A stretch of DNA of 64,000 bases, from positions 4,037-68,036 of the forward strand of contig DAIUAL010000001.1 in NCBI GenBank assembly GCA_036847245.1, in the 5' to 3' direction. The notes beneath the pieces are model-generated. The model was given only the letters and a program-made list of their open reading frames with translations. It had not been told where the DNA came from and did not search any database. Origin of the DNA: Candidatus Kapaibacterium sp. (GTDB lineage Bacteria > Bacteroidota > Ignavibacteria > Kapaibacteriales > UBA4661). Shown here one piece after another: positions 7,129 to 47,644 of the stretch (within the stretch, counting starts at the first letter, position 1; every line of letters starts with the position of its first letter). The translations under genes and the position numbers were made by a program.

Positions 7129-8175
7129 TCATTCTGCAGGCACTTCGCTTAGCGGTGTTGATGGATGTTCCTGCTCCGAGTCTGCTTGCTTTTTCCGTTT
7201 TTGTTCGATGATCTTGTCGCGTCGCTCATAAGCATCAATAATTTCTGCAACCAATTTATGGCGTACAACATCGGCTTTGCTGAAGCTCGCAAACGCGATG
7301 CCTTGGATATTCTGCAAGGTGTCGCGTGCATCAATCAAACCTGACCGTGTTTTTGTAGGAAGGTCAATTTGAGTAACATCACCGGTAACGATAGCTTTCG
7401 AGTTGCGTCCTAAACGTGTGAGAAACATTTTCATTTGTGTCGGAGTTGTGTTCTGTGCTTCGTCCAAAATGATGAAAGAATTATTCAAGGTTCTGCCACG
7501 CATATATGCAAGCGGAATGATCTCAACAACTTTTTTATCCATCATACTCTTGAGTTTTTCAGCACCTGCCATTTCCACCAAAGCATCTAGTAATGGACGT
7601 AAATACGGATCAACTTTTTCCATAAAATCCCCCGGCAAAAAACCAAGTGATTCCCCTGCTTCGACAACCGGTCGTGTAAGAACAATACGACTGACTGCTC
7701 GGCGTTTGAGCGCCGAAAGTGCTAAGGCAATTGCCATATAGGTTTTGCCTGTACCTGCCGGACCGATAGCAAAAACAATATCGTTCTTTTGCACTTTGTC
7801 GGCATATTCTTGTTGTGCTGTATTACGTGCTTTGATGGTTTCGTTAGTTGCGGGATAAATCACTGCAGGCATGGCACTGCCTTCTTTGGTTGATGTTGAT
7901 CGCTCGCCGATACCACCGCCTACCAGATCAATTACTGTCATAACATCATTAGTCGAAAGAGAATTCGTACGCCGAATAATGTACTGTAATTCGAGGAGGA
8001 TTTTTTCGATAGTGCGTACATCATTACTGTTGCCTCGTATAATCAAAGAGTCGCCCCGCAGTGCAAGCGTTGCATCAAAACGATTTTCGAGCAAAAGCAA
8101 ATTGCTGTCATTATATCCAAAGAGCGTGAGCGTATCAATGTTTTCAAGGCGTATTTTTTTTTCGACAAAGTCCAT
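7129..8175 (-). CDS. phoH: PhoH-family ATPase with N-terminal KH-like domain
   Basis: Walker A IGPAGTGKTYMAIALA. PhoH core …RPVVEAGESLGFLPGD…DPYLRPLLDAL…ILDEAQN…. Confidence 0.85.
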   Translation of the reverse strand: MDFVEKKIRLENIDTLTLFGYNDSNLLLLENRFDATLALRGDSLIIRGNSNDVRTIEKILLELQYIIRRTNSLSTNDVMTVIDLVGGGIGERSTSTKEGSAMPAVIYPATNETIKARNTAQQEYADKVQKNDIVFAIGPAGTGKTYMAIALALSALKRRAVSRIVLTRPVVEAGESLGFLPGDFMEKVDPYLRPLLDALVEMAGAEKLKSMMDKKVVEIIPLAYMRGRTLNNSFIILDEAQNTTPTQMKMFLTRLGRNSKAIVTGDVTQIDLPTKTRSGLIDARDTLQNIQGIAFASFSKADVVRHKLVAEIIDAYERRDKIIEQKRKKQADSEQEHPSTPLSEVPAE

Positions 8176-9628: not shown

Positions 9629-9930
9629 CGTTCTTCCTTTACTTGAGTGAAACAGAATGTGAGGAGAAAATTATACTCTATAATCCAAATGATGAAGCGA
9701 TGACTTCATCGCATATCATGACTCGTGCTATGCATATCCTTGCGTAGGACGGTCATGTAACGTACACAACAATCCGCAATATACGATTTCCATGTTTTTT
9801 TCGGGAACAAATGGAAACCGACCGGAAGAGCCGTAACTTTGTGCTTGCCTATAGTTGCTTGGGGCAATTGCTATGCCAACTCTCTTTGTGCTACTGTTAT
9901 TTGTTTTTGCTGTTTCTTTGGGAAAGTCTT

Positions 9931-10866
9931 ATGAGCTATGTGCCTATGCGTCCGCATGTGTTGGGAATAACGGTAGTGGATGATATTCCACTGACTACTT
10001 TACGAGAATACATTGATTGGACACCCTTTTTTTTGTCATGGGAATTACGTGGAAAATACCCTGCCATCTTTGATGATCCGGTTGTCGGCGAAGAGTCGCG
10101 TAAACTCTTTGCAGAAGCAAATGTGCTGATTGATCGCATTGTTGCCGAAAAATCACTCCGCGCCAAAGCTGTGTGCGGATTGTTTCCGGCGAATGCACTT
10201 GACAATGACGACATTGAAGTTTATGCCGATGATACGCGCACATCAGTGCTTGCTACCTTGCATTGTTTGCGACAACAATCGCAAAAATCAACTACGGTGC
10301 CGAATCTTTCGTTGTCGGATTTTATTGCGCCAAAGCGTACAGGTATTGCCGACTATATGGGGGCATTTGCGGTTACTGCAGGGCATGGCACAGATGAATT
10401 GTGTGCTTACTACGAAAAACAGAATGATGATTTTTCTTCGATTATGGTCAAGGCAATCGCCGATCGTTTTGCTGAAGCGGCAGCAGAATGGCTTCACGCG
10501 CAAGTACGCACCACATGGTGGGGCTATGCACCCGATGAACATCTCACGAATGAGTCGCTTATCAAAGAAGAATATCAAGGAATTCGACCTGCTCCGGGGT
10601 ATCCGGCATGTCCTGATCACACGGAAAAACGCACACTCTTCAATTTGCTGTCCGTCGAACAACACACAGGTATGTTTTTAACGGAGAGCTGTGCAATGTT
10701 TCCTGCGGCATCGGTATCCGGTTGGTATTTCGCACATCCGAAAGCAAAGTATTTCCCTCTAGGGCGTATCAATAAAGATCAAGTTGTTGATTATGCTCGA
10801 CGGAAAAATATGTCCGTTGATGAAGTCGAACGATGGCTTGCACCAAACTTGGCGTATGATGTGTGA
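9931..10866 (+). CDS. stand-alone methionine synthase (MetH) reactivation / AdoMet-binding domain protein
   Basis: Near-collinear match to the E. coli MetH C-terminal activation domain. Example: [23 protein letters not shown] vs [23 protein letters not shown], plus [17 protein letters not shown]…HTGM.[15 protein letters not shown].HP…YARRK.[13 protein letters not shown].YD. Start trimmed to ATG 9931. The 9811 extension is hydrophobic junk. Confidence 0.75.
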   Translation: [311 protein letters not shown]

Positions 10867-21831: not shown

Positions 21832-24800
21832 TTATGCGGCGATGTTTTTCGCTCGTGCTTTGCGAATGCCATCTTCGACAGCTGTACGAGGAATAGCAAC
21901 ATCGAACCCTGTTCGTACCACTGTATTTGTGGTATCCAAGCGTGTTAGCACCTGACGGAAAGTTTGCTCTGCTTCTTCCCACCGACCAAGATAGAGTAGC
22001 GCATAAGCACGTAAATGCCGAGCATAGTTTTGTTCAGGAACAAATGTCAATGATAAATCTGCAAAGTGGAGTGATTCCTCATACTTGCGTTGATTGCCTA
22101 CAAGATTTGCTAAAGAAGCCGCTGCATTTGCTGCTAAGTGCTTCGGAAGATTACCGATCTGTAAAGCAAAGAGCAGTGCTTGTTCAGCTTGATCGAAGAC
22201 ATGCATGAAATTCAGCGTTAAGCCGAGTTGAAGCCATGCGTAGGCATTCTCCGGTTCTTCTTTAACATGCTGAAGCAAGAGTCGATAATTACGATCCATT
22301 TTTTGTTTCATGATGGTCATGTCTTGATCATAACCAAGATGTTCGATCATAATATCTGAATCAGCAATACCACCCCCCGCCTCAAGAATACTGGTGCTGA
22401 TTTGCTCATGGACACGTCCTATGAATTTGACCTTAGGATAGCCATAGTTACGAAAGAGACGCGGGTATGCACCAACATGATGTTCAGTATCCATGTCATT
22501 TTGGCGATGTTTACTTTTGATCATACATAAGAATGCTCCAATCTTCTCATCCGCCTCTTCAACAATAGTACGAAGACCTGCTCCTTGCTCCGGTATCAAC
22601 CGCTCATCGGCATCGAGATAGAGTATCCACTTACCGGTACAGTGTTCGAGCGAGTTATTACGCGCCGATGCAAAATCATTCGTCCATGCACGATGATAAA
22701 TTTTTGCGCCAAACTCTTGAGCAATAGTAAGAGTGCGGTCAGTCGAACCTGTATCAGTGATAATGATTTCATCAACAATCCCACGCACGCTCTCTAAACA
22801 GCCCGGTAGAAAATGTTCTTCATTTTTCACAATCATGCTGAGTGAAATTAATGGAGGTTGCGCATGTTCTGATATACTTGACTGAGGAGTCAAACGAATA
22901 GAAAAAGCCGATGCAAAAGTATGAAGATGTGTACGGAATGTTGCCAGTTCTTGTGTAGCAGACTGTGCGGGCAAAAGACGGACTAAGGTTTGCACGATAT
23001 GTTGTGCTTGTGGAATACGTTCGTGCCAAATCGTCGGGCGGTGTGCATCTAGTGCTTGCATATAATTCATGAGCAGTACTAAGCGTTCGCCTGCTGCCGC
23101 GTAGTGCCCCAGCATATACGAGGCAAGAACATCATACCATAATGCTTCGCGTTGATTCGGGAAATATGCTAAAGATTGTCGAGCAACATGCAGCAAGCGT
23201 GTGTAATCAGTTTGTGCAAGTAGGTGTCGGGCATAAATATTTAAGACGACTGCACATTTTTGTGGTGTTGCTTTGGGGTGTGTCAGCAGTTTGCTGAGAG
23301 CATTCAGCATCTCATCATTCGAGAGATTTTCTCCAAAGGTGAGTATATGCAGAACATATTGAAAAGCACCTTCATCATTTGTTGCGCCTTGGCGCATCAA
23401 TTCAGCTTCGAGGAGGGCTGTGTAACGACGAAATTTTTCACCGGTCGGCAATGTTGAATAGTGATAAAAAACGATAGAAGGATCGAAGAGTATTTTTAAG
23501 CCCAAGCGCGTAATGCTTGCTGTTACTTGCTCGTGGATAATGCCTTCATACTGAATAGCGGGGTGTCGGCGAAAAAGACGAAGAATTTCTGTCTGTGCAT
23601 GAGCATCCGACTCTTTGCTGGTAGGTGTGTGACGAATCGAAGAAATATATCCACCAATGTCGGTAGGAGCATTGCTAATGAGTGAACGAATGTGTGTGCC
23701 AATTTCCGTATTGAACCATTCATCGGAGTCAAGCATTAATACCCATGAACCGGAACAGTGTTGCAGAGCATGATTACGAGCTTGGCTATAATCATTTCGC
23801 CAAATCGTATGGACAATCTGTATGGGGGGGATATGTCCGGATTGTTCATGATGACCTTGTTCGCGAAGAGTACGGACAACATTGAGTAATTGAGCATCAT
23901 CGTGCGAAGTACGATTGACAGCATTATGACTGATAATAATTTCATCGCAGCACGAAGCAAGTGAAGATAAAGCACGCAGAAGATATGGCGTATTGCTTTC
24001 TGTAAGAGAGCCGACAATGATTGCGCCGGAGAGTAATATTGTGCGAGAAGAATTGTCATGGTCCTGTGCTGATCCTTGAGTAGTGAATGCCTGTAATGCT
24101 TGTTCAGCTTGAGCAAGAAACTGCGGTAGATCAGTACGTTGCGGTTGAAGGTGAATTGCTTGCTTAAGTAGTGCTACAGCATCGGCAGGTCGTTGGAGCC
24201 GTAAAGCAATATTAGCTTCACCAACAATGCAAGCAATATCATTGGGAGCATGTTTACGACCTTCGTGAAAACAGAGAAGTGCACGATGCCATTCTTGCAA
24301 GCCTGTATAACATTGTCCCATCTTAAAATAAACTTGTTCAGGAACAACATGGTACTCACTCTCGAATCCTGAGGTCGGTTCAGCTAATGTTCGATGTAAG
24401 TCTTCAAAGATTGACAGTGCTGAACGAAAATCAGATTCAGCCAAGAGAACATCGCCCGCGATCAATGATGCTAGTGTCTGTCGTGGCTTTCTGCGTAAAG
24501 ATTCACGAGCAATACGCAAACTCAAATCGAGTTGTTTGGTTTGATACAATGCTAACGCATAAAAATTGAGTGCTTCGATGACTAAATGTTCAGCGAGCTT
24601 TGGCGTAGATATATGGTGCATATGATCGGTTGCCGGTAGATGCATCGCACGCAAGATATTGTCAAGAGCCATGTGGAAATCGTCAAGTGCTTCTGTATGG
24701 CGACCAAGTGCAAGCAGTGTTTTTGCTCGTTGAAAAAGAGCATAGCGGTTATCAGGTGTTGTCTGGAGTGTCGTATTGAGCATAGCGAGATTACGCTCTT

Positions 24801-25368
24801 GTTTCTCACGCATAGCAGTTGGAGAAAGATTATATCCCAAATGCGTGAAGACAATAGTCGAAGGTTGGATGAGGAGACCTGCTTGTTGAATGGCATCGGT
24901 AATTTGTTCATGAATGATACCCTGCCAACGGATGCGATCATCACGCCGAAAGATTCGTGTTGCTTGCGCAGTAAAAACATCACTGCCACCATTAGTCCGA
25001 GCAGAGTGTGAGCGCAAATGAACAAGTATGCCACCAACTTCTTGCGGAGCAGTACGCAAGATATCAGCACATGTTGAGGCATTTTCAAGTCGTTCGTCTG
25101 CGTCAATACTGAGTATCCATGGTGCTTGTGCGAATTCGAGACAAACATTGCGTGCTTGAGCAAAATCATTCTGCCATGTAGACTGGATGACGTGACAACC
25201 AAGCGATTCAGCTAATGGTTGTGTGCCATCAGTTGATCCCGTATCAACAACAATGAATTCAACGGGAAATGCTTCAGCAAGTGGTCGTACTGAAGCGATA
25301 CAATCCGCAAGCATGTAAACTTCATTTTTAGTAATCAGACAGACAGAGAGAAAAGGAGTCGAATTCAT
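21832..25368 (-). CDS. giant tripartite glycosyltransferase: three tandem [GT2-like domain - conserved linker - TPR] modules in one 1178-aa polypeptide
   Basis: GT2 blocks appear three times. Module 1: VCLITKNE…VVDTGSTDGT…WQNDFAQARN…WILSIDADERL. Module 2 (degenerate): …IIISHNAVN…WRNDYSQARN…WVLMLDSDEWF. Module 3: IVKNEE…ITDTGSTDRT…WTNDFASARN…WILYLDADERL. Each is followed by an I.x.G.IHEQ linker and TPR-like helical repeats. Start set at ATG 25368. Confidence 0.8.
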   Translation of the reverse strand: MNSTPFLSVCLITKNEVYMLADCIASVRPLAEAFPVEFIVVDTGSTDGTQPLAESLGCHVIQSTWQNDFAQARNVCLEFAQAPWILSIDADERLENASTCADILRTAPQEVGGILVHLRSHSARTNGGSDVFTAQATRIFRRDDRIRWQGIIHEQITDAIQQAGLLIQPSTIVFTHLGYNLSPTAMREKQERNLAMLNTTLQTTPDNRYALFQRAKTLLALGRHTEALDDFHMALDNILRAMHLPATDHMHHISTPKLAEHLVIEALNFYALALYQTKQLDLSLRIARESLRRKPRQTLASLIAGDVLLAESDFRSALSIFEDLHRTLAEPTSGFESEYHVVPEQVYFKMGQCYTGLQEWHRALLCFHEGRKHAPNDIACIVGEANIALRLQRPADAVALLKQAIHLQPQRTDLPQFLAQAEQALQAFTTQGSAQDHDNSSRTILLSGAIIVGSLTESNTPYLLRALSSLASCCDEIIISHNAVNRTSHDDAQLLNVVRTLREQGHHEQSGHIPPIQIVHTIWRNDYSQARNHALQHCSGSWVLMLDSDEWFNTEIGTHIRSLISNAPTDIGGYISSIRHTPTSKESDAHAQTEILRLFRRHPAIQYEGIIHEQVTASITRLGLKILFDPSIVFYHYSTLPTGEKFRRYTALLEAELMRQGATNDEGAFQYVLHILTFGENLSNDEMLNALSKLLTHPKATPQKCAVVLNIYARHLLAQTDYTRLLHVARQSLAYFPNQREALWYDVLASYMLGHYAAAGERLVLLMNYMQALDAHRPTIWHERIPQAQHIVQTLVRLLPAQSATQELATFRTHLHTFASAFSIRLTPQSSISEHAQPPLISLSMIVKNEEHFLPGCLESVRGIVDEIIITDTGSTDRTLTIAQEFGAKIYHRAWTNDFASARNNSLEHCTGKWILYLDADERLIPEQGAGLRTIVEEADEKIGAFLCMIKSKHRQNDMDTEHHVGAYPRLFRNYGYPKVKFIGRVHEQISTSILEAGGGIADSDIMIEHLGYDQDMTIMKQKMDRNYRLLLQHVKEEPENAYAWLQLGLTLNFMHVFDQAEQALLFALQIGNLPKHLAANAAASLANLVGNQRKYEESLHFADLSLTFVPEQNYARHLRAYALLYLGRWEEAEQTFRQVLTRLDTTNTVVRTGFDVAIPRTAVEDGIRKARAKNIAA

Positions 25369-25469
25369 AAGAGAACAACAGCTACACAAAAAGAATACGA
25401 TTCAGAAGAATGCTGATAGACACAGGGCATGTGTTTATGTACAGACTTTACAAGTTAGGTTGTTGGTTG

Positions 25470-27785
25470 CTAGTGCATACCAATAGGGGTAAGAAAAAAT
25501 GTCTGCATGACGCCTTTGCCTTTAACCTCAATAGGTTGACGGGATTCGACTACAATATCTAAAGGCATACCAATTTGCTCAATAAGTGTACAACGGTATG
25601 TATTTGGTGCAATTTCTTCCACACCCGGTGAATTGAGTAGTACTTGCATGAAACGCTCGGATACATGGATGCGTCCTTCTGCACCGTGAGATTCCATACG
25701 CGACGCGGTATTCACCGAATCACCCCATAAATCGTAAGCAAATTTATGCTTACCAATAACGCCTGCCACACAAGGACCACAGTGTATTCCGATGCGAAGA
25801 TTGACATTGGTAGCAGTGATTTCCCGAATGGTATTCAACGAACGCAGCATGCTGGCGGCAAAAAATGTTATCCGCACGGCATGAGCATCTGTAACCTCGG
25901 GAATACCACCGGCAATCATGTAGCAATCTCCAATTGTTTTGATTTTTTCTAATTGATACAGCAGCGAGGCATCATCAAATTCGCTGAACATCCAATTAAG
26001 AAGTTGCACAAGTTCGCTGGCAGAAGTACGTGCAGAAAGCTTCGTAAATCCAACCATATCTGCAAAGAGTACTGATACATTGTCATAGCTGTCGGCAATG
26101 AGTTCACTTCCTAATTTAAAACGCTGACCAATTGAACGTGGGAGAATGTTGCTCAAGAGTTTTTCGGATTGTTCTTTCTGTTCTTCAATTAAATGTTTCT
26201 GCTCTAAAATTTCTGCATTCTGAAGTTGAATTTCTGAGTTCTGTGCTTGTGTCTCTTCGAGAAGATCAGCGATGCGTTGTTGCGCTTGTGCTGACGCAAG
26301 TACAGAAGCAATATTATCAGCGAGGGCTCCAAAAAGATCAAGATCTTGTTGAGTAAATGACTCCATTGAGCCAAACTCTGCAACGGCTAAACAAGTATCT
26401 TGAAAGATGAATGGTACAGCACAATAGTGCTGTGCTTGCAGTGTGCCAAGGGCACTGGCAACACCGTGATGAGCTAATGATTGTAAAGTATAGTTTTCTG
26501 TTTGCGGTGATGTTGCAGAAACAGATTGATGATGCCGGACAGGTTCGGTAATGCGACTGTTTTGTATGTCAGCTTGGATGATAGAACGATGCTCGTAGCT
26601 ACTCCCGATAATGCCTTCACCAGTACAAAATGTCTGGCGAATAGAACTTGGGTCAGGACAACTATATGTTGCATTAAGTTCAAGATATACTTGATTGTTG
26701 ACAGTACGAACTTTTCGCAGATACAATGATGCCGTGATGCTGCTTGTTAGCTCAGCAAGCATACGGAGGATATCGGTTGTAAGTGTGTCAAGATGGTTAG
26801 CATTACGTGCGAGTGAGGCAATACGATAGCGAAGATCGTCATAATACTTCTGCGTTTCGATTGCTTCCATTGAAGTATTCATAAGTGCAGCAAGTGTAGC
26901 AAGTTCATCATTTTTCTTTTTGATAAACTGTAGCTTCTTCTTGCGCTCTGACGACGATGATTGAAATGCTTGTGTAATGGTGCGAAAGGAGAAACGTATT
27001 CTACGGAGAATAACAATGGTCGAAGCGATAAGAAATGTCAATAGAATAGTCGTGCCAACCACCGCGGTAATATTTTTTATACGATCAAGTTCTTGCTCGT
27101 GGAGCATGACTGTATCTGCACCACGATGAACCAGAGCATGAAGTTCACTACTTCGTAGAGACAACTCTCGGCAATACTCAGAGAGTCGCTGTGCTTCAAG
27201 CCTATATTCCGCTTCCCCAAGCAACTCATCTTCATCAAGGATCTTTCTGAGGGTGAATTGGATATCATTTCTGATAATGATTATAGACTTCGCAACCGCT
27301 ATTTCATGAGGTTCCGTTAAGGCAAAGAATGTTTTTTGCCATATAGTCTCAGACTCATTCATTCCCTGCTCAATTTGCATGCGTAGTTGTTTAATACCAC
27401 TTTGAAAGGAATCTTGAGTACTGCTACTAGAAGGGGTATCAGAAGACTTCTTATATTCGATCAGTAGGTTAGGTAGGGCAGTTGTATACCACATCTGTAG
27501 GCGGTAGAGACCATTCATGGACTGAATGCGATGCATGTACATATCCTGCATGGAGGCCATGGTCTGCTTTTTTAAGTAAAGAACTGTACCGCCCAATATT
27601 CCTACAAAAACGGCACAAATAATCATAAGCCGGGTAATCTGCTGAGCAATCCATGATTGCTGTTTGGCGGAGCGCGAGGCACCTTGTGCAGATTGGGGAG
27701 TGGGTATAGTAGATGATTGAGCAGTAATCTTCTTTTTCAATGACAGATGAAGATCTTGCCAAGAATCTCGATAGGAATTACTCAT
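25470..27785 (-). CDS. membrane-anchored class III adenylate/guanylate cyclase with GAF domain
   Basis: Two TM segments, coiled coil and a GAF-like region (…TGEGIIGSS…). C-terminal CYC domain (…VLFADMVGFTKLS…IKTIGDCYMIAGG…RIGIHCGPCVAGVIG…WGDSVNTASRME). Confidence 0.85.
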   Translation of the reverse strand: MSNSYRDSWQDLHLSLKKKITAQSSTIPTPQSAQGASRSAKQQSWIAQQITRLMIICAVFVGILGGTVLYLKKQTMASMQDMYMHRIQSMNGLYRLQMWYTTALPNLLIEYKKSSDTPSSSSTQDSFQSGIKQLRMQIEQGMNESETIWQKTFFALTEPHEIAVAKSIIIIRNDIQFTLRKILDEDELLGEAEYRLEAQRLSEYCRELSLRSSELHALVHRGADTVMLHEQELDRIKNITAVVGTTILLTFLIASTIVILRRIRFSFRTITQAFQSSSSERKKKLQFIKKKNDELATLAALMNTSMEAIETQKYYDDLRYRIASLARNANHLDTLTTDILRMLAELTSSITASLYLRKVRTVNNQVYLELNATYSCPDPSSIRQTFCTGEGIIGSSYEHRSIIQADIQNSRITEPVRHHQSVSATSPQTENYTLQSLAHHGVASALGTLQAQHYCAVPFIFQDTCLAVAEFGSMESFTQQDLDLFGALADNIASVLASAQAQQRIADLLEETQAQNSEIQLQNAEILEQKHLIEEQKEQSEKLLSNILPRSIGQRFKLGSELIADSYDNVSVLFADMVGFTKLSARTSASELVQLLNWMFSEFDDASLLYQLEKIKTIGDCYMIAGGIPEVTDAHAVRITFFAASMLRSLNTIREITATNVNLRIGIHCGPCVAGVIGKHKFAYDLWGDSVNTASRMESHGAEGRIHVSERFMQVLLNSPGVEEIAPNTYRCTLIEQIGMPLDIVVESRQPIEVKGKGVMQTFFLTPIGMH

Positions 27786-29710
27786 AACATTGCCCCGGAA
27801 GTGAGTGACGCTGTTATGGTACTATCTGCATGTTGTAGTGAATGGGTGGCATGATCTGACTGTTCAGATTGCCTCATGCTGAGTTGAGAGGAGTCCAAGA
27901 TATGGTTGTGTCGATAAGTTAATAGTGCCAGTGCGATACTTTCACCGATAATTGATGCTAATGTTTGTTGCTGATGATTTATGGAATGAAGACAAGCGCA
28001 TTCAATAACGGCAAGAACTTCTTTTTTATAGAGGCAGGGAATTGCCATCATGTAGTGTGGTGCTGTACGCCCAGCCGCCGATACGACAAAAGTAGGGCTG
28101 CCAGATAATGATGAAGTACTATTCTCAGCATTATCGGGAGTCGATTCTCCCAAGGACATAATGACAATTGTACCATTCCGCACAGATTGTCCGCAAATAC
28201 CTTCACCTGTGCGAAAACGTACAAGTGGGTGTTGGTGAGAAACAGCAAACCCTCCTATAAACTCAAACAGATCTTTATGTGCAACTTGGTCGTATGGATG
28301 GGTAGAAGAGGCAACAAAATGATTCTGATTGTTGTGAGCAATATCACAGCGAGTGTACAGACATACAACAGAAGAGTCAAGATATTTGGCAATAAAGCTC
28401 GAAATATTGAGAGATAGTTCGTGCAGAGAGGTACTTTCCTGAATAATACGGGCAGCAGAAGACTGACCTTCCTTCAGCCATAACACTTGTTGTTCTGCAA
28501 TACGCAATGTTTCAATTTCATTACGTTGCTGTTCCATCGCACGAATAGTTTTTGCTTGCTTGCGCGCATTTCGAACCAAGTAAAAAAAACTCAGAGCAAC
28601 AAAAACAGCAATGATGACAATAATTGATCGAGTTAAAACTTCTTGTCGTTGACTAGAGAGAGCGAGCTTGTCAGCAGATGCTTTGTGCTCCCACTCATTC
28701 TCAAGATGAGTAGCTTCTGTTTCAAACTGAATTTTACGATGAGTGATCGTTATAATGAGCCGAGAGTAGTAATTGCTGTATTTATAAGCGGAGTCATATT
28801 GTTTGAGCGATGCATAAATATTTCGCAAAAGTTCTACGGCACTTTCTTCATCCGGCTCGTTTGAAAGTTTTTTTGCACGCGCCAATGCTTGTTGAGCCAA
28901 TGAAATTGCGTCTTTTGCTTTGCCTAATGCAAAGAGAATTTCCGCCTTTTCTTGGTATGCATTGTTTTTTTCATACGTTGATCGATTAGTTTCTGCCAAA
29001 TAAATGGCAGAATCAATCATAAGTGTAGCCGGTTTTAACTGCCCCATGGTTTTGTAAAATCGTGCCAAATAAACATACGCCGTGGTGATATTGGCAGTAT
29101 CTTTAATCGAGTGATGTGATCGCAAGAATAAGCAACGTTGATAGTTAATGTTTGCCTGAGTATAATTATCCAATTCTTTATACAAGTCACCGAGGCGTAA
29201 TGCCGCATATGCCATGCCGATGGTATCGTTTTGTTCGGTGAACATTTGCTGACTTTCCGACATATAGGAGAGAGCTTCACCGAATTTTTTTTTATACACT
29301 AGCATTTCACCGATATTCAGCTTGCAATAGGCGAACTCGCGCGGGGTCTGCGCACTTATTCCTAACGATTCAATTTTTTTGAAAACATCCAAACCACGAT
29401 CATAGTCCTTGATATTGCGAAAAATGATGCCGATATAGTTTGCCGGCTCAATGAATCGTTGGGGTAGTCGAAAATTTGTAGCTAACTCCATCGCTTCTCT
29501 GCCATAGCGAACTGCGGCATTAATGTCATTCTTACGATAGAGCCATGCTAAACGCGTCAGTGGAGCAATACGAGAAGTATCATTGTAGGTAAGCAAGAGA
29601 GACTTTAAACTATCCGCTTCAGAGATTTGTGCACGAAGACGACAAGAAGAGAATAGGAGACCAATGCCAAGCAGAAGACCTATGCCAATATATTTGGTGA
29701 TTCTACACAT
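27782..29710 (-). CDS. TPR-repeat / TM / GAF sensor protein without output domain
   Basis: Signal/anchor (MCRITKYIGIGLLLGIGLLFSSC), extracytoplasmic TPR repeats, a TM helix (IIVIIAVFVALSFFYLV), then coiled coil plus GAF-like (…TGEGICGQS…). Stop overlaps the cyclase start codon (ATGA, 27782..27785). Alternative start at 29764. Confidence 0.7.
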   Translation of the reverse strand: MCRITKYIGIGLLLGIGLLFSSCRLRAQISEADSLKSLLLTYNDTSRIAPLTRLAWLYRKNDINAAVRYGREAMELATNFRLPQRFIEPANYIGIIFRNIKDYDRGLDVFKKIESLGISAQTPREFAYCKLNIGEMLVYKKKFGEALSYMSESQQMFTEQNDTIGMAYAALRLGDLYKELDNYTQANINYQRCLFLRSHHSIKDTANITTAYVYLARFYKTMGQLKPATLMIDSAIYLAETNRSTYEKNNAYQEKAEILFALGKAKDAISLAQQALARAKKLSNEPDEESAVELLRNIYASLKQYDSAYKYSNYYSRLIITITHRKIQFETEATHLENEWEHKASADKLALSSQRQEVLTRSIIVIIAVFVALSFFYLVRNARKQAKTIRAMEQQRNEIETLRIAEQQVLWLKEGQSSAARIIQESTSLHELSLNISSFIAKYLDSSVVCLYTRCDIAHNNQNHFVASSTHPYDQVAHKDLFEFIGGFAVSHQHPLVRFRTGEGICGQSVRNGTIVIMSLGESTPDNAENSTSSLSGSPTFVVSAAGRTAPHYMMAIPCLYKKEVLAVIECACLHSINHQQQTLASIIGESIALALLTYRHNHILDSSQLSMRQSEQSDHATHSLQHADSTITASLTSGAML

Positions 29711-29997
29711 ACATGGTAGGAGAAAATAAAGATGAGTCTCTGAGCAAGAGTTTCTGATATACAATATGCTTGATGTGTACGATGATTCTATAATCTAAGT
29801 AACCGTAAGCATTTGCTTCTCATTTTAAAAATTGGCAGAACGTAATCGCCAACTGAAATTTAAGTAAATTGGATTGTGTTCTTTGCAAAAAAGTAGAGAC
29901 AAAATCGAGGAAACACACAATATTCCTTGCTTTCTTTTATGCAAAGTAGCAGAACACGATATTTCTATTTTTTCTTTTCATTTTTTAGAGATACACT

Positions 29998-30850: not shown

Positions 30851-32272
30851 ATGACTTTTTCGTATCTGCATGACCGTCGTGCTTTTCAAGAACAAACGCT
30901 TACCTGTGTAGCACGTACTCAAGAGTGTCTTGAGCGTATTCATGAATCAGCTAATCTTAATATCTTTATCACGGTCACCGGGGAGCATGCGATTGCTTCG
31001 GCACAAGAGTCTGATGCACGGTTTGCGCAAGGTAATCCACGTCCTTTAGAGGGAATGATTATCGCTATTAAGGATAATATTTCAACGAAGGGTGTACGAA
31101 CAACATGTGCCTCAAAAATTCTACATAACTATGTGCCTGTATACGATGCGACAGTGATTGAGCGGCTACAGAATGCAGGGGCAATCCTCATTGGCAAGAC
31201 CAATATGGATGAGTTTGCAATGGGGTCGTCGAACGAGAACTCTGCATACGGTGCAGTACGTAATCCCATACATCAAGAATATGTTCCCGGAGGGTCTTCG
31301 GGAGGATCTGCGGCCGCAGTTGCGGCGGGCATGTGTCATACTTCACTCGGTTCTGATACAGGTGGTTCTGTACGTCAACCCGGATCATTTTGTGGCTTAG
31401 TTGCCCTTAAGCCGACATATGGACGTGTGTCGCGCTATGGGCTGGTTGCATTTGGTTCATCGCTCGATCAAATTGGTGTCTTTGCAACAAATGCCGATGA
31501 TTGTTCAGCGGTGTTAGATGTTATCGCAGGCAAAGACGATCGCGATGCTACTAGTGCTCCGATTGCCAATAGCCGAGCGCATGAAGAATTAAAACTGCCT
31601 TTGCCGGAGAAATTTACTCTTGCAGTGCTTGATATAGCACAACTGCAAGGATGCGATGCAGAAGTTCTGAGTGCCTATCAGTCCATGCAAGAACGTTACA
31701 AAGCATTAGGGGCAATCATAGAAACAGTCAAGATTGATCTTGCTGACCTATCTATTCCTACATACTATGTGATTGCAACAGCAGAGGCATCATCTAATTT
31801 GGCACGGTATGATGGTATTCGTTTCGGCTTACGTGTCAATGGAGTGAATGACGATGACGACGTATATGTTATGTCGCGTACGCAAGGCTTTGGTGCAGAA
31901 GTAAAGCGTCGTATTATGCTTGGAAATTATGTTTTATCCTCCGGATATTACGATGCATACTATACAAAGGCTCTTAAAATTCGGCGCTTGATGGCAGAAA
32001 GCTATAAGCGTATTTTTACTCGTGCACATGCTTTGCTTTTGCCTACATCACCGGTATTGCCTTTCAAATTGGGCGAAAAAACATCTGATCCTCTTGCTAT
32101 GTATCTTGCCGATATTTTTACAGTCTCGGCAAATTTGGCAGGCATTCCGGGTTTATCGATACCGGCAGGCGTATCCGCAGAGGGTTTACCTATTGGTATG
32201 CAACTTTTGGGTGATCATTTTAAAGAAAGCGAACTCCTTCGATATGCTCACTATGCTCTACAATCCGCGTAA
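30851..32272 (+). CDS. gatA: Glu-tRNA(Gln)/Asp-tRNA(Asn) amidotransferase subunit A
   Basis: Amidase-signature block GGSSGGSAAAVAAGMCHTSLGSDTGGSVRQP and GatA-typical ends. Confidence 0.9.
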   Translation: MTFSYLHDRRAFQEQTLTCVARTQECLERIHESANLNIFITVTGEHAIASAQESDARFAQGNPRPLEGMIIAIKDNISTKGVRTTCASKILHNYVPVYDATVIERLQNAGAILIGKTNMDEFAMGSSNENSAYGAVRNPIHQEYVPGGSSGGSAAAVAAGMCHTSLGSDTGGSVRQPGSFCGLVALKPTYGRVSRYGLVAFGSSLDQIGVFATNADDCSAVLDVIAGKDDRDATSAPIANSRAHEELKLPLPEKFTLAVLDIAQLQGCDAEVLSAYQSMQERYKALGAIIETVKIDLADLSIPTYYVIATAEASSNLARYDGIRFGLRVNGVNDDDDVYVMSRTQGFGAEVKRRIMLGNYVLSSGYYDAYYTKALKIRRLMAESYKRIFTRAHALLLPTSPVLPFKLGEKTSDPLAMYLADIFTVSANLAGIPGLSIPAGVSAEGLPIGMQLLGDHFKESELLRYAHYALQSA

Positions 32273-45161: not shown

Positions 45162-46550
45162 CTATGCTTTTTCGACTATGAGAGTTTTTATGTTCGTAAA
45201 CTCATAAAACCCGAAGATCGAGAGTTCGCGTCCGTAGCCTGACATTCCTATACCACCAAAAGGCAATCGAGGATCAGATCTTACCATATCATTGATTGCA
45301 CACATACCTACATTGAGTCGATATTCTGCAATTTCTTTGGCTTGATGAAGATCACGAGTAAAAATTGCTGCGCCCAAACCATAATGAGTACGATTAGCCA
45401 CTTCGACAGCATGACGAACATTGCGCGCGATGATGATTGGAGCCACTGGACCAAAAGTTTCCTCTTCGAGAACAAGCATCGAAGTATGTACATTAGTGAG
45501 AATAGTTGGTAGAAATGATGCACCCTTTCCCACACGATGTGAGCCACCCAAACGTGGAATAGCTCCTTGAGCAATAGAGCGATCCACTTGTTCCGCGAGT
45601 GTAGTGCGTAAGTGTTCTGTGGCGAGTGTACTAATATGTGTTGAGGGGTTTTCAGGGTGATCAATTTGATACGAAGAAAATTCGTGTACCAGAGCTTCGG
45701 TAAATTCTTCTGCTCTGTTTTTATGAACAATAAATCGCTTTGCTGCAATACAGCTTTGACCGTTATTTAAGAGTCGAGAGGTTGCACAGACGCGTGCCGC
45801 TTGTTTGATATTAGCATCATCAAGTACGATGTAAGGATCACTACCGCCGAGTTCTAAAACAGATTTTTTAATCGAACTACCTGCCACTTCGGCAATTGCG
45901 CTACCTGCACGTGTACTGCCGGTGCAAGCAACTCCTTTGACAGCGGCATGTTGGATGATAAGAGCTGTATAGGTTTCCACTTTTTCAGGAGCGATTAATA
46001 CTACGCGTAGAGCATTATTCAGAAAACCCGCTCTCCGAAATAAGTCTTCCAGCATCAGAGCACAACCTGTAACATTAGGTGCATGTTTGAGAATAATGGT
46101 GTTGCCCACAGCCAGCGTAGGAAGAGCAAAGCGAATGACTTGCCAAAAAGGGTAATTCCACGGCATTACACCTAGGATTACACCTAATGGACGATGAAGG
46201 ACATAGCTTTGATGATATCCCATTCTGATGCGTTGCGGTGTTAAAAATTTTTCCGCATTGTTCGCAACATATTCACAGCAGAGAGCACATTTTTCGATTT
46301 CAGCGAGCGATTGTGTAATGGGTTTACCCATCTCGCGTGTAATAAGAAGGGCGAGATCATGAATTTCATTGCGGAGTAGTTCTGCCAATTTGTGCATAGG
46401 AGCAACACGCTCGGCAACTGACATATCTGCCGTTTCATGTGATGTGTGGTATACTTTTTCAATCGTCGAAAAAATTGTCGTCAACGAATGTGCTTTGTAG
46501 CGAGCAATTTTTTCATTTGTGAAAGGATTAATTGAAACAAGCTGGATCAT
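45162..46550 (-). CDS. NAD(P)-dependent aldehyde dehydrogenase (succinate-semialdehyde dehydrogenase-like)
   Basis: ALDH blocks …ELGGSDPYIV…, catalytic Cys region …NNGQSCIAAKRF…. Start trimmed to ATG 46550 (MIQLVSINPFTNEK…). Confidence 0.85.
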   Translation of the reverse strand: MIQLVSINPFTNEKIARYKAHSLTTIFSTIEKVYHTSHETADMSVAERVAPMHKLAELLRNEIHDLALLITREMGKPITQSLAEIEKCALCCEYVANNAEKFLTPQRIRMGYHQSYVLHRPLGVILGVMPWNYPFWQVIRFALPTLAVGNTIILKHAPNVTGCALMLEDLFRRAGFLNNALRVVLIAPEKVETYTALIIQHAAVKGVACTGSTRAGSAIAEVAGSSIKKSVLELGGSDPYIVLDDANIKQAARVCATSRLLNNGQSCIAAKRFIVHKNRAEEFTEALVHEFSSYQIDHPENPSTHISTLATEHLRTTLAEQVDRSIAQGAIPRLGGSHRVGKGASFLPTILTNVHTSMLVLEEETFGPVAPIIIARNVRHAVEVANRTHYGLGAAIFTRDLHQAKEIAEYRLNVGMCAINDMVRSDPRLPFGGIGMSGYGRELSIFGFYEFTNIKTLIVEKA

Positions 46551-46699
46551 GACAGTGAATGAAAAGCGAAGGAAGAAACAACGATAACTTGGCAAACATA
46601 CGCAGAGCGGTCAAAGAACAAGGAGAAGAAAATAAAAAACGGTACTCAACAAAAAGAGAGTACCGTTTTTTCTAAGGAGTGCTGTATGAGAACACGAGC

Positions 46700-46864
46700 T
46701 GTAGGGGTAGGAGTCGAACCTACACGGGGCGGTTAGCTCTGCGCCGGCGAGAAGAAAGACGAGTGGTATGGTTCGTATCTTTCTTCTCGTTCGAGCAGAA
46801 TTTTTTCCGGAATCCCCACCGCCGAGACTGGGCGGCATGGCTGCCAAAATTTCATCACCCTACA
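46700..46864 (-). ncRNA. tRNA-like / structured RNA candidate (~165 nt): canonical T-arm and 7-bp acceptor pairing flanking a 12-bp perfect hairpin
   Basis: On the minus strand: 5'-TGTAGGG (rc of 46858..46864), then T-arm GTAGG-TTCGACT-CCTAC (rc of 46707..46723), then CCCTACA-G 3' (rc of 46700..46706). Internal 6-bp/7-nt-loop hairpin (46818..46836) and a 12-bp perfect hairpin cgagaagaaaga/tctttcttctcg (46748..46759 / 46778..46789). Too long for a tRNA and too short for tmRNA. Confidence 0.25.
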
Positions 46865-47044
46865 ATGTCAAAGAAGTTGCTCAATAATTGTAAACTGAGA
46901 AATCAGTATGTTTATCATTGAACTAGTACAAACTTAAAGAAAGGGTTTAGTTGTTGCAAATAATTTTATGAAATAGCTTAATTTTTAGATAATTTTGAAT
47001 AAAAATTATATTTTTTATCAAAATGTTAAAATTGATAGGCTGAT

Positions 47045-47644
47045 ATGCATACCCATTTACAAATTGGCAAACACCATGACCGCTCAGTCGAAGAGGATTT
47101 AGATGAACTTGATTTGCAGATCTTGCATTTGCTCTTGCAAAATGCACGCATGCCTTATACCGATATAGCGGATAAGGTACATACATCGAGCGGCACTATT
47201 CATGTACGCATGAAAAAAATGGAACAGCTTGGTATTGTGCGAGGTGCGCATTTGCAGATTGATGAGGCACTATTAGGATATGATATTTGTGCCTTCTTGG
47301 GGATTTATTTGGAAAAAGGTTCACTTTACAAGCAGGCTGTTAAAGATTTGGAGCAAATCCCTGAGATTGTTGAAATGCACTATACAACAGGTAATTACAG
47401 TATTTTGGCAAAGCTTATTTGTCGTGATACGCGGCATTTACAAGCGGTGCTGAATGATAAAATTCAGGCAGTATCCGGTATTGAGCGGACAGAAACATTC
47501 ATCTCATTGGAGCAGAGTATGCAACGACCACTACAATTGCTCCAACCTGTTGCGAAAGAAGAAAAACATGCAAGACATACCGTAGCACCGTCAGGAGCCA
47601 AAATGAAGACACAATCTGGTGCAAGCACGCGCATTAAAAAGTAG
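47045..47644 (+). CDS. Lrp/AsnC-family transcriptional regulator (with C-terminal extension)
   Basis: LDELDLQILHLLLQNARMPYTDIADKVHTSSGTIHVRMKKMEQLGIV is an AsnC-type HTH. RAM-like domain follows. Very AT-rich upstream region. Confidence 0.75.
   Translation: MHTHLQIGKHHDRSVEEDLDELDLQILHLLLQNARMPYTDIADKVHTSSGTIHVRMKKMEQLGIVRGAHLQIDEALLGYDICAFLGIYLEKGSLYKQAVKDLEQIPEIVEMHYTTGNYSILAKLICRDTRHLQAVLNDKIQAVSGIERTETFISLEQSMQRPLQLLQPVAKEEKHARHTVAPSGAKMKTQSGASTRIKK

Follow-up and report, generated by a model that had tools for sequence, protein, structure and literature searches.

A tRNA-shaped RNA with aspartate tRNA-like features and a giant variable arm in Bacteroidota chromosomes and phage tRNA arrays

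What kind of RNA, if any, is made from the minus strand at positions 46699-46864 of the stretch of Candidatus Kapaibacterium sp. DNA analysed here (64,000 nucleotides of contig DAIUAL010000001.1; hereafter the window)? A preliminary description had pointed out a structured, tRNA-like domain at this place, upstream of an aldehyde dehydrogenase (ALDH) gene, and had left several readings side by side: a tRNA gene, disrupted or inserted; a regulatory RNA resembling a tRNA; or another new non-coding RNA. We find that the element folds like an aspartate tRNA into a cloverleaf, with a variable arm of 92 nt. It is most likely the stand-alone gene for a stable, tRNA-shaped RNA of 166 nt, and it is almost certainly a member of a large family found in Bacteroidota chromosomes and in phage tRNA clusters. 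Among the earlier readings, that of a tRNA-like non-coding RNA is upheld by this large covarying family, while that of a disrupted or inserted tRNA gene falls, since the arm is conserved and canonical tRNA-Asp coexists with the RNA. The window genome itself belongs to the Bacteroidota, encoding the type IX secretion system (T9SS) protein PorQ and a T9SS-sorted protein; no close relative of it was found in the protein database.

The RNA extends from U1 to the discriminator base G73 (46699..46864, minus strand, as are all its parts), an extent set by a full-length match to a covariance model. Its acceptor stem is a perfect 7-bp inverted repeat, in which the 5' strand UGUAGGG (46858..46864) pairs with CCCUACA (46700-46706); the latter strand and G73, read directly from the sequence, occupy 46699..46706. 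U8, G9 and the D-arm follow (46837..46857), with a 3-bp stem of AUG (46853-46855) and CAU (46837-39) that is supported by covariation and a loop, AAAUUUUGGCAGC, bearing A14, A15, G18, G19, C20 and A21. The GGCA of this loop (G18 G19 C20 A21) leaves no space for an extra base 20A. The anticodon-like arm (46819..46835) has a covarying 5-bp stem, CCGCC/GGCGG, and the 7-nt loop C32 A33 G34 U35 C36 U37 C38. The giant variable arm of 92 nt (46726..46817), whose base and middle helices covary in the family, opens with a 4-bp base helix, GGGG/CCCC, continues with a second helix of 3 bp and ends in a long distal hairpin; its internal-loop strands, GA...AAAA and GCUAAC, are conserved in the family. The distal hairpin has a 12-bp perfect stem, cgagaagaaaga/tctttcttctcg, with the loop ACCAUACCAC, set within 22-nt arms that are 82% complementary (46738-46759 / 46778-46799). 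G47, U48 and the T-arm GUAGG-UUCGACU-CCUAC (46707..46725), supported by T-stem pairing and compensatory changes, complete the molecule. The base after G73 is C, and CCA is not encoded. The window RNA thus has U1-A72, U3-A70, A10, A33, U37, C38 and G73.

Much of this outline had been seen before. The acceptor-like helix of TGTAGGG (46858-46864), exactly complementary to CCCTACA (46700-46706) with a discriminator G at 46699, the T-arm GTAGG-TTCGACT-CCTAC (46707-46723), the stem-loop GCCGCC-CAGTCTC-GGCGGT (46818-46836) and the 12-bp perfect hairpin inside the element are all present as the preliminary description gave them. The covarying 3-bp D-stem and the GG-bearing D-loop, which make the cloverleaf complete, had been overlooked there. 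Its argument against chance also holds: a 181-nt stretch folds with a minimum free energy of -64.9 kcal/mol against -51.1 +/- 4.0 in dinucleotide shuffles (z = -3.45, with 0/200 shuffles as good), and a covariance model built from other genomes matches the element from end to end. The window holds no second copy of the hairpin sequence anywhere in its 64 kb, and no second T-loop element was found when one was sought across it.

The pattern 'TGTAGGG, 130-160 nt, GGTTCGANTCCNNNCCCTACA' matched nine viral contigs, and the interiors of these nine align with the window element and show compensatory changes. A pattern internal to the element, with no condition on the acceptor stem, matched at least 120 viral contigs, from which 105 distinct elements of 141-174 nt were extracted. 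All 105 start and end alike, with a 7-bp acceptor helix, U1-A72 and a final G73, and their acceptor 5' strands covary with their partners (TGTAGGG, TGTAGAG, TGTCAGG, TGTTTCC, TGGTCGG and others). A third viral pattern, in which the seven loop bases were unconstrained, recovered essentially the same loci. A scan of species-representative genomes returned at least 120 records, all from Bacteroidota among the matches listed. These include Chitinophaga, Hanamia, Sediminibacterium, Terrimonas, Ferruginibacter, Dyadobacter, Spirosoma, Arcicella, Algoriphagus, Cyclobacteriaceae, Saprospiraceae, Lewinellaceae and Pedobacter, and so span Chitinophagales, Cytophagales and Saprospirales as well as Pedobacter; none of the at least 120 genome matches listed was named as belonging to Flavobacteriales or Bacteroidales. 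When the window element and one of the viral elements were compared by BLAST with 50,697 cultured phage records, nothing but short matches to the T-arms of ordinary tRNAs came up.

We built a covariance model, R1, from 42 diverse sequences (21 bacterial and 21 viral, none more than ~75% identical to another), with the window excluded. R1 matches the window with 112.5 bits (E=2e-29) over model positions 1-146 of 146, and 46699-46864(-) is its sole match in the 64 kb; other family members score 90-150 bits. On 100 bacterial loci the model found 126 copies. The element is therefore conserved in a large family and is not unconserved random sequence. Across the family the total length of the RNA ranges from 108 to 179 nt.

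Two variant forms of the RNA were seen among these loci. Short forms of 108-125 nt have a much smaller variable arm, keep the GUCU loop and adjoin a long copy; they were detected only by the covariance model and missed by the sequence patterns. In Pedobacter they are placed between the long copy and an AsnC-like gene (L131:1141-1254, L206:5234-5341, L211:5197-5310), and others occur elsewhere (L226:42-150 and 358-466; L144:2755-2869; L148:5579-5703; L159:4507-4628). Tandem arrays of two or three copies are found in Saprospiraceae, Lewinellaceae and some Cyclobacteriaceae (L214:6974-7744; L137:3758-4451; L182:6343-6703; L224:3715-4120; L160:7366-7691; L220:5463-5814). These often couple one copy that has a GACCAC motif in its arm with one that does not, in lineages that mostly have no AsnC-like neighbour.

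That the cloverleaf is complete, with stems of 7 bp (acceptor), 3 bp (D), 5 bp (anticodon-like) and 5 bp (T), is near certain. RNAalifold, applied to the 105 viral sequences together with the window, predicted 30 pairs, 23 of which show double compensatory changes. When the cloverleaf and three arm helices were laid on the 42-sequence set, 95.4% of 1,428 cells held standard pairs, against 46-56% in controls in which the 3' partners were slid by 1-3 columns; 26 of the 34 pairs had changed on both sides, and none of 500 shuffles reached any of the observed measures. All seven helices are supported in this set, including the short D-stem, where AU, GC, UA and GU occur at 10:25 and UA and CG at 11:24. 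The acceptor stem is paired in every cell and shows compensatory changes in five of its seven pairs; the T-stem is likewise 100% paired, with such changes in three of five pairs, and the anticodon-like stem covaries with 99.5% of its cells paired. In the variable arm, the base and middle helices covary and the distal part is variable. No pseudoknot was seen in the family RNA, for which no search aimed at pseudoknots was made.

The invariant unpaired bases are those of a tRNA core: U8, G9, A14, A15, G18, G19, A21, U48 and U54-U55-C56-G57-A58. The invariant A15 and U48 fit a Levitt-type pair. U1-A72 is also invariant, in a scan that did not impose it. In place of the variable loop stands the conserved arm, 35-100 nt across the family, and about half of the phage copies have a further hairpin inserted in the D-loop. 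The window RNA has the whole family feature set (U1-A72, G73, G34U35C36(U/C)37, GGCA and an arm base with GA.../...YUAAN strands) and deviates from it by A33 and by an arm without the GACCAC motif. That motif, G(G/A)G(G/A)UNGACCAC, is present in 107 of 126 bacterial copies and in nearly all viral ones; the distal arm of the window copy is a plain long hairpin without it, as in a minority of bacterial copies.

As a side observation on this motif, G(G/A)G(G/A)U(N)GACCAC is often placed where no pairing is apparent (for example L134:3130-3271 and L001:646-804). Its core, GGUCGACC/GGUUGACC, a (quasi-)palindrome, could serve for dimerisation or for binding a protein. The window copy has only ACCAUACCAC, in its hairpin loop. 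We considered and rejected a Ro-like helix between the ACCAC of the arm and a 5' GUGGU: positions 10-11 vary without compensation there, and covary instead with their partner in the D-stem.

Is this RNA one that is already known? Neither ARAGORN nor Rfam calls the element. ARAGORN finds no tRNA or tmRNA gene in the window, and Rfam 15 at gathering scores offers no family for the element, either in the window or in 12 viral loci. Relaxing Rfam 15 to E<=10 for the window element and the Chitinophaga pinensis copy yields noise only (tRNA-Sec at 15 bits and leader peptides), with no tRNA match. The tRNA-Sec hit (15.1 bits, E=6.3) is a forced alignment, to be set against a gathering score of 47 for RF01852, and that identity was rejected. 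So was tmRNA, since the RNA has no tag and no G3-U70, and ARAGORN and RF00023 are negative for it while finding tmRNAs beside the phage copies. A literature search, to which subscription-only papers were out of reach, found no description of the family, and the main text of a study of 224 motifs (PMC5737381) holds no matching motif. We therefore regard the family as a new class, absent from Rfam 15, within the known kind of tRNA-like non-coding RNAs.

The surroundings of the RNA gene, read from sequence signals, indicate that it is an independent transcription unit beside a divergent AsnC-type regulator gene. The latter (47045..47644, plus strand) encodes an AsnC/Lrp-family regulator with Pfam HTH_AsnC-type and AsnC_trans_reg domains, whose best NCBIfam model is AsnC (PRK11179, E=9e-50, below cutoff) and which is 48-62% identical to proteins of other family loci. 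In E. coli, AsnC controls the divergent asnA gene. When open reading frames (ORFs) in the flanks were clustered, the one neighbour that stood out was an Lrp/AsnC regulator, encoded in every case a short way upstream of the RNA on the other strand. Among the copies with at least 750 nt of upstream sequence (n=112), 87, the window included, have a divergent AsnC-like gene, at 81-421 nt (median 159 nt); in the window the distance is 180 nt, taken up by an AT-rich divergent control region (46865..47044) in which an inverted-repeat search found several repeats, and to which the regulator may bind. The window protein is 199 aa long against ~155 aa in other loci, the extra being ~12 N-terminal residues and a 33-residue Lys/Ser-rich C-terminal tail. 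At ~25 bacterial loci, many of them in Cytophagales (for example L242:2452-5058), the AsnC-like gene is followed on the same strand by sufB/sufD and a class-V aminotransferase (SufS-like), and the regulator gene may thus also head an Fe-S cluster assembly (suf) operon.

On the other side, 28 nt past the RNA, the same inverted-repeat search gives a terminator-like hairpin, a perfect 14-bp repeat followed by UUUUUUAUUUU (46634..46671, minus strand); in 92 of 127 family members the 80 nt downstream contain a hairpin with a T-run. For a promoter, the candidate is a -7 box, TAAGTTTG, of the Bacteroidota type TAnnTTTG, which is located 64 nt upstream (46929..46936, minus strand) and would give a 5' leader of ~55 nt, removable at U1. 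TAnnTTTG is found in 74 of the 127 regions upstream of family members, on the same strand as the RNA and for the most part 20-40 nt from +1.

The ALDH ORF (45162-46550, minus strand) does follow on the same strand, as had been described, but the functional link that this placement implied is not borne out, given that the downstream genes vary and that the RNA has its own terminator, the 14-bp hairpin between RNA and ORF. In the window the neighbour is ALDH, in 20 loci it is an acyl-CoA-synthetase-like/AMP-binding enzyme, and elsewhere it is something else; no ALDH cluster is shared among the family loci. Since the downstream genes differ among genomes, the RNA is not a leader of the ALDH gene. 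Typical Bacteroidota signals, namely a TATGTTTG box at 46593-46600 (-), past the RNA terminator and ~40 nt upstream of ALDH, suggest that ALDH has its own promoter. Its start is most plausibly the ATG at 46550 (46548-46550, -), giving MIQLVSINPFTNE, with no Shine-Dalgarno sequence. An exact-protein look-up for ALDH was empty and its homologues reach at most 53% identity, so that synteny through ALDH is of no use.

In bacterial chromosomes the RNA stands alone, and ARAGORN calls nothing at the element in 60 loci. In viral contigs it lies within tRNA arrays, on the same strand as the tRNA genes and often near a tmRNA. Clustering of the proteins encoded around the RNA in 129 viral loci yielded only a nuclease of the PD-(D/E)XK type, a glucosaminidase, a protein like RNase H and, for the rest, uncharacterised phage proteins, with no translation, amidotransferase or AsnC-like genes among these neighbours. 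One array, L005, also holds a full-length GOLLD RNA (271 bits; 7432-7854, minus strand) between the element (7143-7311) and tRNA-Leu, with a tmRNA 1.7 kb beyond it, and so has three unusual structured RNAs. Some phage tmRNAs encode unusually long tag peptides, such as DVELSTMTFEDAMAFVGADYAVAA and GNVYNNMEIAGLLATSKVAA (among L001, L002, L004, L005, L007, L008, L054, L023, L082 and L045); in other viral loci the tags are of the short ANEYALAA type.

If the RNA is tRNA-shaped, what could it carry? The anticodon-like triplet is GUC in all 126 viral and all 129 bacterial copies, and in the loop-unconstrained viral scan 125 of 126 loops read NNGUCUN, the one other being CAGUCCC, again with GUC. A review (PMC9976931) names five strong, evolutionarily conserved aspartate determinants: G73, G34, U35, C36 and C38. 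All five are present in the window RNA, and these determinants are the most conserved bases of the family outside the core. The only ordinary tRNA that R1 detected in the 100 bacterial loci is a tRNA-Asp. Position 37, by comparison, is U in >97% of copies and a pyrimidine in essentially all, and position 33 is not fixed, being U in most members, C in roughly one in four phage copies, and A in the window. Of what marks a tRNA, the window RNA thus has the cloverleaf and U8/A14/G18G19/A21, and lacks U33, a purine at 37 and a variable region of ~24 nt or less. Phage arrays with the RNA also hold canonical tRNA-Asp(GUC) and tRNA-Asn, so that the RNA is not simply the phage's tRNA-Asp, and a Dyadobacter locus with it also holds canonical tRNA-Asp. 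The succession of G73 by C is in the style of canonical tRNA genes in the same genomes and phages; with this tRNA-style 3' flank and the free ends of the 7-bp acceptor stem, maturation by RNase P and by the enzyme that adds CCA is predicted. A free position 33 and a pyrimidine 37, combined with aspartate determinants that are kept, favour a carrier that would be charged by a synthetase and would not decode. Aspartylation of the RNA is, on these sequence grounds, plausible.

A second set of features bears on amidation. For bacterial GatCAB, U1-A72 promotes amidation, and G1-C72 and U20A of tRNA-Asp prevent it (Bailly et al., PMC1635274; PMC4206432). With its invariant U1-A72 and its GGCA without 20A, the family is without either blocking feature; the canonical tRNA-Asp of an RNA-bearing Dyadobacter, in contrast, has G1-C72 and GGUUAGA. 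At 30851-32272 (plus strand), 14.4 kb away from the RNA gene, the window encodes GatA (TIGR00132, 587 bits with a cutoff of 481), the A subunit of the amidotransferase for Asp-tRNA(Asn) and Glu-tRNA(Gln), so that the organism possesses a tRNA-dependent amidation enzyme; gatB and gatC were not seen within the window. In Table S1 of PMC4206432, gatCAB occurs together with AsnRS and GlnRS in Chitinophaga, Dyadobacter, Spirosoma, Emticicia and Pedobacter, is recorded for Cytophaga and Belliella too, and is absent from Bacteroides, Parabacteroides, Flavobacterium, Cellulophaga, Capnocytophaga and Sphingobacterium. Among the at least 120 genome matches, all those listed fall within gatCAB-positive lineages; where the RNA was and was not seen among these matches agrees with the table. 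Why bacteria with both AsnRS and GlnRS retain GatCAB is an acknowledged puzzle (PMC4206432).

These observations allow us to hypothesise a function. The reading that we tentatively favour, while holding it somewhat short of probable, is that the RNA may be a non-decoding, tRNA-like carrier charged by aspartyl-tRNA synthetase (AspRS) and perhaps then amidated by GatCAB. Beyond the fold, the conservation, the signals of a transcription unit and the partner gene, we infer each step that follows. The primary transcript would have a leader; RNase P would cut at U1, the 3' end would be trimmed past G73 and CCA would be added. AspRS would read the invariant G73, G34-U35-C36 and C38 and charge the RNA with aspartate, while the A, C or U at 33, the invariant pyrimidine at 37 (U37) and the huge arm would exclude it from decoding. 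Given that both features which stop GatCAB are absent (the end pair being U1-A72, with no 20A), the bound aspartate would most likely be converted to asparagine. The outcome would be an asparagine-linked, AsnC-controlled aminoacyl carrier apart from the decoding tRNA pool, and phage copies in tRNA arrays would supply the same activity in infection.

A more specific form of this idea, which we consider doubtful, is that the RNA might be a dedicated non-decoding scaffold for asparagine synthesis by AspRS and GatCAB, switched on by the AsnC-like regulator when asparagine is scarce, with the giant arm and U37 keeping Asn-RNA(GUC) off the ribosome or recruiting the enzymes. A discriminating AspRS would load aspartate by virtue of GUC, C38 and G73, and U1-A72 with the lack of base 20A would let GatCAB amidate it to asparagine. 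If this were true, the RNA gene would take the place beside its regulator that asnA has beside asnC in E. coli, the retention of GatCAB in Chitinophagales, Cytophagales and Pedobacter despite AsnRS and GlnRS would be explained, and phage copies would sustain the asparagine supply.

Several points weigh against a carrier of aspartate or asparagine. At position 10, the place of the bacterial aspartate determinant G10, the window has A, as do 100 of the 126 bacterial copies, and G1-C72, which aids positioning of the 3' end by E. coli AspRS (PMC9976931), is U1-A72 in the family. GatA is not encoded near the RNA in other loci, and the co-distribution with gatCAB is confounded by phylogeny and rests on a 2014 table of few genera and on the at least 120 genome matches, as far as listed. 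The hairpin in the D-loop of about half of the phage copies could disturb the reading of D-loop size by GatB. The AsnC-like protein scores 168 bits against an equivalog cutoff of 227, a score from which its ligand is not assignable, and copies in Saprospiraceae and Lewinellaceae have no AsnC-like neighbour. Organisms with a non-discriminating AspRS and tRNA-Asn would need no special carrier, and carriage by phages that already hold canonical tRNA-Asp is not obviously explained.

The serious rival to a charged carrier is a decoy or regulator that binds AspRS or another reader of tRNA-Asp. We think it unlikely, if well worth weighing, that the RNA would be an uncharged mimic of tRNA-Asp, never aminoacylated, titrating a protein that reads the anticodon loop and acceptor end; AspRS, tRNA-guanine transglycosylase, or an anticodon nuclease or toxin directed against GUN tRNAs would be candidate targets, with the arm recruiting a partner or multimerising. 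An invariant GUCU loop and G73 with a free position 33 fit recognition by proteins in general, phage arrays with tmRNA and once with GOLLD are to be expected of a counter-defence or host-takeover RNA, and the quasi-palindromic arm motif GGU(C/U)GACC would permit dimerisation. However, a decoy has no need for a conserved, open-ended 7-bp acceptor stem, a G73 with the local tRNA-type 3' flank and a full tRNA core, and chromosomal copies under an amino-acid-type regulator in many species fit metabolism better than defence. As for the transglycosylase, that enzyme needs U33, which is not conserved.

Could the RNA instead decode? A genuine tRNA-Asp isoacceptor with an extreme, class-II-like arm, used under particular conditions, would account for the complete cloverleaf, the aspartate identity set with GUC, the U33 of most members and the place among phage tRNA genes. 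We nonetheless judge it very improbable: the base at 37 is a pyrimidine in essentially all copies, with C33 in about a quarter of phage copies and A33 in the window; the arm measures 35-100 nt, whereas the variable arms of class II tRNAs are ~10-24 nt long; canonical tRNA-Asp genes coexist with the RNA; and tRNA models do not recognise it. Less credible still would be a novel bacterial tRNA intron in the variable region, whose removal would leave an ordinary-sized, tRNA-Asp-like molecule with U1-A72. The arm does sit exactly at the variable-loop position, closed by a conserved helix, and its length varies widely (108-179 nt in total). On the other hand, no ribozyme family matches and the arm is too small for a group I or II intron, the arm's base helices and internal loop show the conservation of a functional part, and the product would still carry U37.

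Kinship in function with YrlA or tmRNA, in which a tRNA-like module would tether Ro60/Rsr or rescue ribosomes, is highly improbable, despite the tRNA-like T-arm, D-loop and acceptor, the frequent tmRNA neighbour in phages and an arm sequence, UUGACC, that we take to resemble the 3' strand of the metazoan Ro-binding helix. The stretch that might be the 5' partner of UUGACC shows variation but no covariation and instead pairs in the D-stem, no TROVE protein was found among the ~40 window ORFs scanned, and the RNA has no tag frame, no G3-U70 and no ARAGORN tmRNA call; it also has the normal order of tRNA parts with open acceptor ends, in contrast to the permuted order of YrlA (PMC4201824). Scarcely credible, finally, is a degenerate tRNA gene into which a small palindrome was inserted, or an ALDH leader or attenuator acting in cis: the 12-bp perfect hairpin resembles an inserted palindrome and a terminator does stand between element and ORF, but the arm covaries in hundreds of homologues, the hairpin is not repeated in the window, the downstream genes differ between genomes and ALDH has its own TATGTTTG box past the terminator.

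Elsewhere in the window, some further features stood out. A 351-aa ORF (9811-10866, plus strand) matches only the C-terminal activation domain of MetH (model residues 925-1232) and may be a split or stand-alone MetH reactivation domain. A 1,185-aa protein (21832-25389, minus strand) combines a SunS-like peptide S-glycosyltransferase domain with TPR repeats, and its gene is followed by two large unannotated ORFs (25470-27785 and 27782-29764).

Should a non-decoding carrier be the right explanation, the family would matter in several ways. Few non-decoding, tRNA-shaped RNAs are known (tmRNA, YrlA and a handful of cell-wall tRNAs), and to these would be added a class that is widespread, has an architecture of its own and comes with a conserved partner gene for a protein, in many Bacteroidota species and many large phages. 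It would offer a concrete candidate substrate for GatCAB in bacteria with AsnRS and GlnRS, and would exemplify control of a tRNA-like gene by an amino-acid-responsive transcription factor. Genome annotation pipelines currently miss the family entirely.

How, then, does the family compare with known RNAs? According to PMC5737381, GOLLD and ROOL are structured RNAs that lie beside phage tRNA genes and also occur in bacterial chromosomes; they differ from the family in being 400-600 nt long, not tRNA-shaped, and without any sequence or fold in common with it. With tmRNA the family shares an acceptor stem and T-arm, a length far beyond that of a tRNA, frequent encoding by phages, in many viral loci as neighbours, and, as predicted for the window RNA, tRNA-like processing; it differs by an intact anticodon-like arm and D-stem, the lack of a tag reading frame, and U3-A70 in place of G3-U70. 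YrlA too has a tRNA-like T-arm, D-arm and acceptor-like stem and occurs in bacteria and phages, and that of M. smegmatis is cut by RNase P and receives CCA (PMC4201824). Its order, however, is T-arm, closed acceptor stem-loop and D-arm, its ends form part of a stem, bearing GNCGAAN0-1G, to which Ro binds, and rsr is linked to it (PMC4201824), whereas the family has the normal order of tRNA arms and open acceptor ends, and the GNCGAAN0-1G Ro stem was not seen in it.

Class II tRNAs, tRNA-Sec and allo-tRNAs likewise have an extra helix between the anticodon stem and the T-stem; the arm of the family is several-fold longer, branched in many members and furnished with conserved motifs. Closer in idea are non-proteinogenic tRNAs, such as the staphylococcal tRNA-Gly for cell-wall synthesis, which serves non-ribosomal aminoacyl transfer. 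These can be charged by a synthetase and are kept from translation by changes elsewhere in the molecule, as proposed here, but they are of ordinary size with normal anticodon loops, and for the window RNA an acceptor pathway is not known. The family has in common with tRNA-Asn, as a substrate of AspRS and GatCAB, U1-A72, G73, G34 U35 and the lack of a supernumerary D-loop base, features on which GatCAB relies (PMC1635274; PMC4206432). Its anticodon is GUC rather than GUU, so that a discriminating AspRS could charge it, and with the giant arm and U37 use in decoding is not expected. With canonical tRNA-Asp(GUC), lastly, it shares the cloverleaf, the 7-bp acceptor stem and 5-bp T-stem, the T-loop UUCGA, G18G19, U8 and A14, as well as G73, G2-C71 and an anticodon loop of the form C/U-N-G-U-C-N-C with C38, and it departs from that tRNA in having U1-A72 instead of G1-C72, no U20A, U37 instead of A37, a position 33 that is not fixed, mostly A10, a 3-bp D-stem, and an arm of 35-100 nt where the canonical molecule has 4-5 nt.

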